NCBI RefSeq assembly: GCF_003018235.1
Contig: NZ_CP027437.1
Direction: 5' to 3' (one strand)
Source of the DNA: Escherichia coli
Lineage (GTDB): Bacteria > Pseudomonadota > Gammaproteobacteria > Enterobacterales > Enterobacteriaceae
Length of the DNA stretch: 64,000 nucleotides
The position numbers were made by a program, and so were the translations under genes. Shown piece after piece: positions 8,230-11,421 of the stretch. Under the pieces are notes generated by a model that searched no databases, had not been told where the DNA came from, and saw only the letters and a program-made list of their open reading frames with translations. The first letter of the stretch is position 1. Every line of letters begins with the position of its first letter.

Positions 8230-8400
8230 TCAGGCTACAGCTTTAAGATTTGTCTGGAATACTTTGTTGCAATGAGGGCAGATCAAAAGGGCACCTTTTT
8301 GTACTCTTGAAAAACTGTGTTCTGACTCTTGGGTGCAGTTTGGGCAGGAACATTTAACGAGATAATTACGGCGTGATTTTGAGTCTTTACGTTCTGACAT
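8230..8400 (-). CDS. ynfU: Small zinc-ribbon protein (56 aa), YnfU-like
   Basis: MSERKDSKSRRNYLVKCSCPNCTQ...CPHCNKVF with CxCPxC...CPxC motif; assignment to ynfU is from memory of the K-12 small-protein set. Confidence 0.5.
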   Translation of the reverse strand: MSERKDSKSRRNYLVKCSCPNCTQESEHSFSRVQKGALLICPHCNKVFQTNLKAVA

Positions 8401-8619
8401 AGGCTTTTCCTGTATAAATGGCCGTATACAGTACACTAAATATGAAAACATTTCTCGTATTATTATTTTATATATGACTTTCTTTCAAAATAATTACCCA
8501 CATTTTTAATGTGTATGTTTTTTTAGCGCCGTTGAGAACAACGTGTGCTGTCAAAACTACCCCGTAGACTCCGATCTTTTCAAACATATTGCACCATCCG
8601 TGTACATCGGGGTGAGGAT

Positions 8620-10175: not shown

Positions 10176-10535
10176 GGTAATATTAAATCGGAACATTTAC
10201 ATCGCGGAATGTAAAATTTAAATAAAAAGGACTCTTCCATGAGCCAAAATTCCTGAAATCTTAAGGGTAAGAAAAGGTCTTAATCAGAATGACACGTTTT
10301 ATTAATAAATAAAGCTATTCTTTCATTGCTGTGTTTTTCTTTACAAAAGTAATCCTTGCTATGGGTGGTTAATCATGCGTTAATGGTGTTCTGGTTTGTT
10401 ACAAATTTATCTGAAGCAGTCATTGTTATAATTTTATTATTTGTACCTCTTGGGATTTCCTTGTTGGTTTTTCTCTCTGATATTTTTTTTCGGACCATTC
10501 TGCCCAAGGGCTAATTTCTTCAAAAGGTAATAATT

Positions 10536-10748
10536 ATGTCTAACAAAATGACTGGTTTAGTGAAATGGTTTAACCCTGAAAAAGGTTTTGGTTTCATCAC
10601 GCCGAAAGATGGCAGCAAAGATGTGTTTGTCCATTTCTCAGCAATTCAGAGCAACGATTTCAAAACATTAACTGAGAATCAGGAAGTTGAATTTGGTATT
10701 GAGAACGGACCTAAAGGTCCTGCCGCTGTTCATGTAGTGGCGCTTTGA
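10536..10748 (+). CDS. cspI: Cold-shock-like protein CspI
   Basis: 70-aa translation [26 protein letters not shown]... Confidence 0.9.
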
Positions 10749-10952
10749 GGTAGACAATATTACAAACCATATTCACTTTAGATGCCCGTGTTGTCATGGT
10801 TCCCAGTATAGAACATCATCTTTTGATGTTTCTGACATGAATCCTTTCGGGGCAAAATGTATCTTTTGTAAATCAATGATGATTACATTTGATAATATTT
10901 CACAATACTTAAATGCCAGCCGTCTGTCGTTGGATTTAAAAAAGTGAAAATG

Positions 10953-10976
10953 AAGGCTCCTTCGGGAGCTTTTTTG
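10953..10976 (+). terminator. Rho-independent terminator
   Basis: Hairpin gctcc-ttcg-ggagc followed by tttttt. Confidence 0.65.
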
Positions 10977-11019
10977 CTTGGTGTCTATTCGATGGATACT
11001 CACATACTACGGTAACATC

Positions 11020-11250
11020 ATGAAAAAAATCATAGTTTTTTTTAACTCTGAACCAGCAGTGGTAGTGCCAGCGATGACTGGAGTTAACACCATCATGCGT
11101 GAATATCCAAATGGCGAAAAAACACACCTTACTGTAATGGCCGCAGGGTTTCCATCTCTGACCGGAGATCATAAAGTCATTTATGTAGCCGCGGATCGAC
11201 ATGTTACTTCAGAAGAAATTCTGGAAGCAGCAATAAGGCTCTTGAGTTGA
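11020..11250 (+). CDS. Hypothetical protein (76 aa)
   Basis: ORF MKKIIVFFNSEPAVVV... on the late strand between cspI and gnsB; no clear SD. Confidence 0.3.
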   Translation: MKKIIVFFNSEPAVVVPAMTGVNTIMREYPNGEKTHLTVMAAGFPSLTGDHKVIYVAADRHVTSEEILEAAIRLLS

Positions 11251-11421
11251 TTTGATGCTATTGTATTGATAATTCAGGAAAATTCTCTTTGTCTGTTTGT
11301 GTAAAATTTAGACTATCGTATGTTGATTATTGCGATGTTTCATCTTATCTTTTACACGTTTGCACCATATAATCGACTTACTGTGTAACTGGAAAGTCAT
11401 AACAGGCTAAAAGAGGAAATG

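Follow-up and report, generated by a model that had tools for sequence, protein, structure and literature searches.

Does the reading frame directly behind the cold-shock gene cspI encode a protein and, if it does, at which codon does its translation begin? The question arises in a 64,000-nt stretch of Escherichia coli DNA (contig NZ_CP027437.1 of RefSeq assembly GCF_003018235.1), referred to here as the window, where a frame that is open from 10738 to 10947 (69 protein letters) shares its first 11 nt with the end of cspI. No ATG, GTG or TTG is present in it between 10738 and 10836, and the first such codon, ATG 10837, lies past the first cysteine pair. The original prediction, made from the sequence alone, had described the frame, its CPCC...CxxC motif, the single late ATG and a terminator at 10953–10976, all of which are present. 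It had offered two readings of them: a gene with a non-canonical or coupled start, or a recently inactivated zinc-ribbon gene, possibly the equivalent of ynfN. The elements of the stretch are as follows.

10536–10748, plus strand: cspI coding sequence, 70 aa, the upstream partner, with its TGA stop at 10746–10748 (open reading frame list; annotation of K-12 and of the RefSeq record with identical sequence)
10735–10737, plus strand: stop codon TAG that bounds the ynfQ frame on its 5′ side (sequence, translation)
10747–10751, plus strand: Shine-Dalgarno-like GAGGT, overlapping the cspI stop, 7 nt before the ATT (sequence; alignment A4)
10759–10761, plus strand: start codon ATT of ynfQ, as annotated and as conserved among relatives (CDS start in RefSeq and K-12; zero entropy at codon positions 1–2)
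10759–10947, plus strand: ynfQ, 62 aa, YmcF-like with a predicted zinc-ribbon-like fold, stop TGA at 10945–10947 (RefSeq annotation; Pfam PF23641; homologues)
10783–10794, plus strand: first cysteine knuckle, C9-P10-C11-C12 (alignment of 32 family members; third-position-only variation)
10837–10839, plus strand: internal ATG (Met27), lineage-specific and not the start (consensus K at codon 27)
10858–10869, plus strand: second cysteine knuckle, C34-I-F-C37 (alignment of 32 family members; pLDDT)
10950–11015, plus strand: ynfR, 21 aa, which starts 3 nt past the ynfQ stop (annotation)
10953–10976, plus strand: intrinsic-terminator hairpin with an 8-bp stem, UUCG loop and T6 tract, directly after ynfQ (folding)
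11021–11250, plus strand: ynfN with the extent given by the identical record; in the K-12 annotation it is shorter, 11098–11250 (annotation; open reading frame list)
8231–8401, minus strand: ynfU, of the YnfU zinc-binding family NF038384 (E 7.9e-23) (annotation; open reading frame; profile match)

The frame behind cspI corresponds to ynfQ

Of 5426 complete E. coli genomes, 2146 gave a megablast match to the region 10500–11300, and 2110 of these carry at least 80% of it; strain 95-3322 matches the window at 100% identity over 801 nt. In a 100% identical RefSeq record the gene order is cspI, ynfQ (named ‘cold shock small protein YmcF’), ynfR and ynfN, and the ynfQ CDS maps to 10759–10947 of the window with ATT as its first codon. 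The same 189-nt CDS, also with ATT as first codon, is annotated in K-12 MG1655 as ynfQ (b4724, YP_009518790.1) between cspI and ynfR in the cryptic prophage Qin, where the neighbors rzpQ, cspI, ynfR, ynfN and gnsB are the same. Aligned over 10700–11030, the window and K-12 are identical in the shared columns. Sequence identity and common flanks (cspI upstream; ynfR, ynfN and gnsB downstream) thus identify the gene as the orthologue of K-12 ynfQ, from which it differs in nothing of substance; the window represents a Qin-like prophage of another strain. It is highly probable that the frame after cspI is ynfQ, intact, conserved and starting at AUU 10759. The gene and its ATT start were previously annotated and are already known; they do not constitute a new kind of element.

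The equation of this frame with ynfN, which had been proposed as a possibility, does not hold: ynfN is a separate gene of unrelated sequence, annotated downstream at 11021–11250. The identical record gives it a longer N-terminus than K-12 does, namely 76 aa from MKKIIVFF as opposed to 51 aa from MREYPNG, and a homologue of the long form is found downstream of ymcF in Raoultella. The name ynfQ also requires care, as VanOrsdel et al. (2018) used it for another gene, of 37 aa, that lies between ydfJ and ydfK; the gene listed today at those coordinates is ynfT.

Sequenced lambdoid phages, for example Tritos, 2H10 and mEp460, also carry the gene; it follows their lysis cassette and is mostly unannotated, presumably because gene callers ignore ATT starts. 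Phage records H32–H35 and H37 are complete lambdoid genomes with an intact homologue over which no CDS is annotated. Some database proteins of 70–71 aa have spurious upstream ATG or TTG starts inside the csp gene.

The K-12 paralogue of ynfQ is ymcF (b4723), which lies behind cspG in the same arrangement: the csp stop is placed inside T(A/G)AGG (here TAAGG) and is followed by a 10-nt gap, an ATT and 62 codons. A terminator hairpin with a T-run (alignment A1) and then a gnsA/gnsB-type gene are located downstream in both cases. Between the window protein and proteins of the ymcF type (P0043) the identity is 65%. In contrast to ynfQ, ymcF is chromosomal rather than prophage-borne, it lacks Met27 and has its first methionine at residue 41, its C-terminal tail diverges, and its 3′ end is overlapped by ymcE where ynfQ has ynfR and ynfN.

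YnfQ is a YmcF-like protein with a predicted zinc-ribbon-like fold

The 62-aa product matches the Pfam profile PF23641 (‘YmcF-like’) over its full length, with residues 1–62 corresponding to profile positions 1–62 (E 1.7e-32); the score of 111.8 bits against a cut-off of 27 shows that the reading frame is not due to chance. In an alignment of 32 family members C9, P10, C12 and C37 are invariant and C11 and C34 nearly so. YnfQ contains the cysteines of the C-P-C-C ... C-x-x-C pattern and the GSQYRTS / NPxGAKCIFCK core, and it retains every invariant column of the alignment (F7, C9, P10, C12, G14, S15, Q16, R18, P29, G31, A32, K33, C37, K38 and M41). The family is found in Enterobacteriaceae, with one Dickeya member and a homologue in a Morganella phage. 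About half of it (Enterobacter, Klebsiella, Raoultella, Leclercia and Lelliottia) consists of stand-alone genes that, unlike ynfQ, start with ATG behind a GGAG Shine-Dalgarno (SD) sequence.

The AF2 model of YnfQ has pLDDT values above 90 over residues 11–40, and its best structural neighbors are zinc ribbons, namely TFIIE-alpha (1vd4) and ribosomal proteins of the eL43 type. In the model, two cysteine knuckles (CPxC and CxxC), spaced about 25 residues apart, would be carried on short β-strands, much as in these proteins. From the model the fold looks zinc-ribbon-like, and zinc binding is predicted. A 2026 review describes YnfQ as rubredoxin-like with a metal site, on the basis of an AlphaFold-3 model with Fe2+ (PMC13348028). 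A putative role of YnfQ would be exerted on RNA, the ribosome or the transcription machinery in cold acclimation; we would guess, with little confidence, at a metal-stabilized adaptor that binds nucleic acid or the ribosome under these conditions.

The ynfU-like gene that had been noticed nearby is confirmed by annotation and by its profile match. YnfU resembles YnfQ in being a small protein with two cysteine knuckles encoded in the same prophage. No similarity between the two was detected by BLASTP at E values up to 100, and a search of YnfQ against NCBIfam gave no NF038384 match, only a sub-threshold hit to ECs_2282_CxxC (17.8 bits; cut-off 37). A relationship of YnfQ to YnfU was rejected, as neither the NF038384 match nor pairwise similarity was found.

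The ATT start codon is conserved among relatives

No canonical start precedes the conserved core of ynfQ, and the codon at 10759 is a conserved near-cognate triplet at a proper SD spacing, beginning 10 nt past a cspI stop that is embedded in TGAGGT. Start codons were compared at the best 80 of 191 homologues detected in representative genomes, mostly one per Enterobacteriaceae species, to which the window, K-12 ymcF and two phage loci were added. All loci were anchored on the F-R-C-P-x-C motif, and codons were counted over 83 of them. At the position homologous to 10759 we found ATT in 42 loci, ATC in three and ATG in about 35 (34–35), and in three more an ATG lies 1–3 codons away. ATT or ATC is common to Escherichia, Citrobacter, Salmonella (ATC), Kosakonia, Yokenella, Trabulsiella, Siccibacter, Pluralibacter and others.

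The type of start codon is associated with the genomic context. Where a csp open reading frame ends just upstream (41 loci, with a gap of 9–10 nt in 39), 39 loci have ATT or ATC and two have ATG at the position or within 3 codons of it, whereas among the 42 loci without an adjacent csp the corresponding numbers are six and 36; these counts are not phylogenetically independent, since the start type switched several times (about seven changes on a noisy NJ tree of 129 nt). The two csp-adjacent loci with ATG belong to Citrobacter sedlakii and a Morganella phage, and three Pseudescherichia-type loci have kept ATT without an adjacent csp, behind an AAAGGA motif. In two Atlantibacter loci, which have no adjacent csp, an ATT is followed at once by ATG (ATT ATG TTA CAT ...; L041 and L065, position 2492); these may be intermediate between the two start types.

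The pattern of variation delimits the coding region at the same codon. In 41 distinct ATT/ATC-start sequences with a stop 10–14 nt upstream, the entropy of codon 1 is zero at its first two positions (ATH), all positions of codons –3 to –1 and 3–4 are variable, and variation from codon 5 to about codon 48 is almost wholly confined to third positions. On the 5′ side of codon 1 the wobble periodicity becomes that of the csp frame. In 31 aligned csp-adjacent loci the csp stop is held in T(A/G)AGG without exception (invariant columns T33, A35, G36 and G37 of alignment A4).

Judged by these comparisons, the ATT is the first codon of the ynfQ coding frame and is conserved as such; annotation and comparison together support AUU as the codon in use. 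The occurrence of ATT/ATC at 9–10 nt behind a csp stop, as opposed to ATG in stand-alone genes, provides independent support for the curated start. A non-canonical start had thus been correctly anticipated: it is the annotated ATT 10759, with ATT or ATC invariant among the 41 distinct sequences while the flanking codons are free to vary. The coupled start that had been proposed along with it is supported by comparison as probable.

The possibility that translation instead begins at ATG 10837, yielding a 36-aa peptide and leaving the upstream cysteine pair untranslated, is hardly credible, even though this is the sole canonical start in the frame. Codon 27 is mostly lysine in the ATT/ATC group (18 K, 8 R and 4 G) and arginine in ymcF, and no SD-like motif precedes 10837. 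The region before Met27, including C-P-C-C, is moreover the most conserved at the protein level, with variation in third positions only.

ynfQ is an intact gene under purifying selection

An ATG at the equivalent codon in homologues had been named as a sign that the ATT of the window is simply a mutated start. Such homologues do exist (about 34–35 loci have ATG at exactly that codon), but the ATT is not a local mutation, as it spans many genera. Decay of the gene, in which an ancestral ATG turned into ATT and the recently inactivated frame is no longer translated, would also agree with the poor initiation from ATT in E. coli, which is due to discrimination by IF3. We nevertheless regard it as very unlikely. 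All 45 loci with ATT or ATC, which come from many genera, have intact frames of 62–64 codons, the same length as in the ATG loci. The median pairwise dN/dS of the ATT/ATC loci is 0.086 for codons 2–26 and 0.103 for codons 27–48, indistinguishable from that of the ATG-start copies (0.073 and 0.071). The invariance of the start codon amid variable flanks, and the presence of the region at a coverage of at least 80% in 2110 of the 5426 complete genomes, also speak against decay. Because the ATT-start copies have intact frames and a dN/dS of about 0.09–0.10 both before and after codon 27, the suggestion of recent inactivation is rejected. ynfQ is under ordinary purifying selection along its whole 62-codon frame.

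Possible coupling of ynfQ to cspI translation

The junction between the two genes has the layout of a coupled pair, with a 10-nt gap and an SD that overlaps the end of the upstream open reading frame; the gap is 9–10 nt in 39 of the 41 csp-adjacent loci. The GAGGU overlaps the cspI stop and the AUU follows 10 nt on, so ribosomes that finish cspI would be delivered beside a weak start. We propose that ynfQ would be co-transcribed with cspI from the cspI promoter and leader, in a transcript that would mostly stop at the hairpin right behind ynfQ. Translation of ynfQ would initiate at AUU 10759, which terminating cspI ribosomes would reach by translational coupling or re-initiation, and the AUU would hold YnfQ output proportional to, but far below, that of the very abundant CspI. 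Where the csp open reading frame is missing, the gene would carry its own GGAG SD and ATG. That the start codon goes with csp adjacency adds modestly to what is known of the gene and suggests coupling; whether YnfQ initiation depends on cspI translation, taken by itself, we consider evenly balanced.

Coupling is not obligatory across the family, given the three Pseudescherichia-type ATT loci without csp and the two csp-adjacent ATG loci. A serious alternative, which we hold to be possible rather than probable, is that the SD drives AUU initiation on its own, independently of cspI translation, and that the weak codon merely sets a low level of expression. The near-optimal 7-nt spacing of the GAGGU, a consensus fold that predicts an unstructured start region, and the retention of ATT behind AAAGGA without any csp in the Pseudescherichia-type loci are all in line with such stand-alone initiation. 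It would be hard to reconcile, however, with the distribution of ATT/ATC, which is found with a csp stop 9–10 nt upstream in 39 of 41 loci against six of 42 elsewhere, or with the invariant stop-in-SD arrangement, if csp translation were irrelevant.

The window sequence folded alone pairs the stop/SD region with codons 5–12. A structure masking the SD or the AUU is not conserved in the consensus fold of the 31 csp-adjacent loci, and the masking hairpin was dismissed as a candidate. Since it is not conserved, classical unmasking is not supported as the coupling mechanism.

A further feature of the junction is CTT TGA G at 10743–10749, which is the slippery heptamer of prfB. With the ynfQ frame lying at +1 and open from 10738, programmed frameshifting there could produce a CspI–YnfQ fusion with no separate initiation. 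We find such a fusion highly improbable, as CTT TGA occurs in only three of the 41 ATT/ATC loci, most of which have CTC TAA or CGC TAA, and no SD-like stimulator is located 3 nt upstream of the CTT. Coding constraint is absent from the spacer codons –3 to –1, and the stand-alone ATG copies show that the 62-aa protein works by itself. In Kosakonia, in addition, the gap is 9 nt and the csp stop is in frame with ymcF, which makes a frameshift fusion impossible there.

AUU starts are known in E. coli from infC and pcnB, and that of infC has been experimentally tied to autoregulation by IF3. As in ynfQ, the AUU of these genes is conserved across species, implying initiation that is deliberately weak or sensitive to IF3. 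In ynfQ and ymcF, unlike infC and pcnB, the AUU sits 9–10 nt past a highly translated upstream open reading frame. Returning to coupled initiation, we tentatively extend it to a broader proposal that we ourselves consider doubtful: the AUU may be a selected device paired with the csp stop-in-SD junction, by which the synthesis of YmcF/YnfQ would be slaved to the cold-induced burst of Csp through re-initiation and tuned by IF3, so that lineages without csp would have had to adopt AUG and a strong GGAG SD.

Several loci illustrate what stands upstream of ymcF when csp is absent. The csp open reading frame is missing from loci of the Klebsiella oxytoca group and Raoultella (L016, L019, L021, L024, L026 and L027), which have a tiny Cys-rich open reading frame, (M)AKCPCGSECCSK..., about 60 nt upstream of position 2501, a candidate for a translated leader peptide; it ends 11–12 nt before the ymcF ATG or overlaps it (ATGA). 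In Enterobacter and Leclercia (L053, 2260–2500; L038, 2270–2500) ymcF is a stand-alone gene with a GGAG SD and ATG. Its neighbors in L053 are a large membrane-protein open reading frame on the opposite strand, which from its sequence may be cytochrome bd-II-like, and a downstream 474-aa open reading frame, which may be MocR-like. Upstream of ymcF in L053 and L038 there are short boxes, CATGCGTTAATGG and AAAGCAGTTCTCAT, that resemble the cspG/cspI promoter and leader. These boxes suggest that cold-shock control may have been kept there without a csp gene.

The terminator overlaps ynfR

The hairpin AAGGCUCC-UUCG-GGAGCUUUUUU at 10953–10975 folds as a terminator (minimum free energy of the 51-nt stretch, –14.9 kcal/mol; z –2.8). 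A simple terminator scan reported the 10953–10976 hairpin on the minus strand only, and direct folding confirmed it on the plus strand. It lies wholly inside the ynfR open reading frame. YnfR-SPA has been reported to be strongly induced by cold shock (PMC6001520), and since YnfR is made and the hairpin is inside its gene, transcription must read through the terminator and ribosomes must translate across it. The overlap of ynfR and the terminator could provide attenuation-like control of the downstream genes ynfN and gnsB.

Expression and implications

cspI, ynfQ and ynfN have been reported to be induced in parallel, with ynfQ tabulated as ‘cold shock induced’ (PMC11228462), and the expression of cspG, cspH, cspI, ymcF and ynfQ changes together (PMC11728337). 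In the literature that we searched, including the TetRP paper and the Onc112 preprint, we found no initiation profiling, N-terminal peptide or tagging of YnfQ or YmcF; mentions of the gene were confined to a structural review, tables of expression and a y-ome list, none of which maps the start.

The main value of these results lies in annotation. Very few genes of E. coli have an annotated ATT start; ynfQ and ymcF are two of them and are overlooked by ordinary gene callers. Within the cold-shock response YnfQ is a small item. The pattern of start codons in its family suggests a simple link of coupling to start-codon strength in a cold-shock operon, and if the doubtful broader proposal made above is true, the csp–ymcF pair would be a natural, repeatedly evolved case in which the choice of start codon tracks operon architecture.
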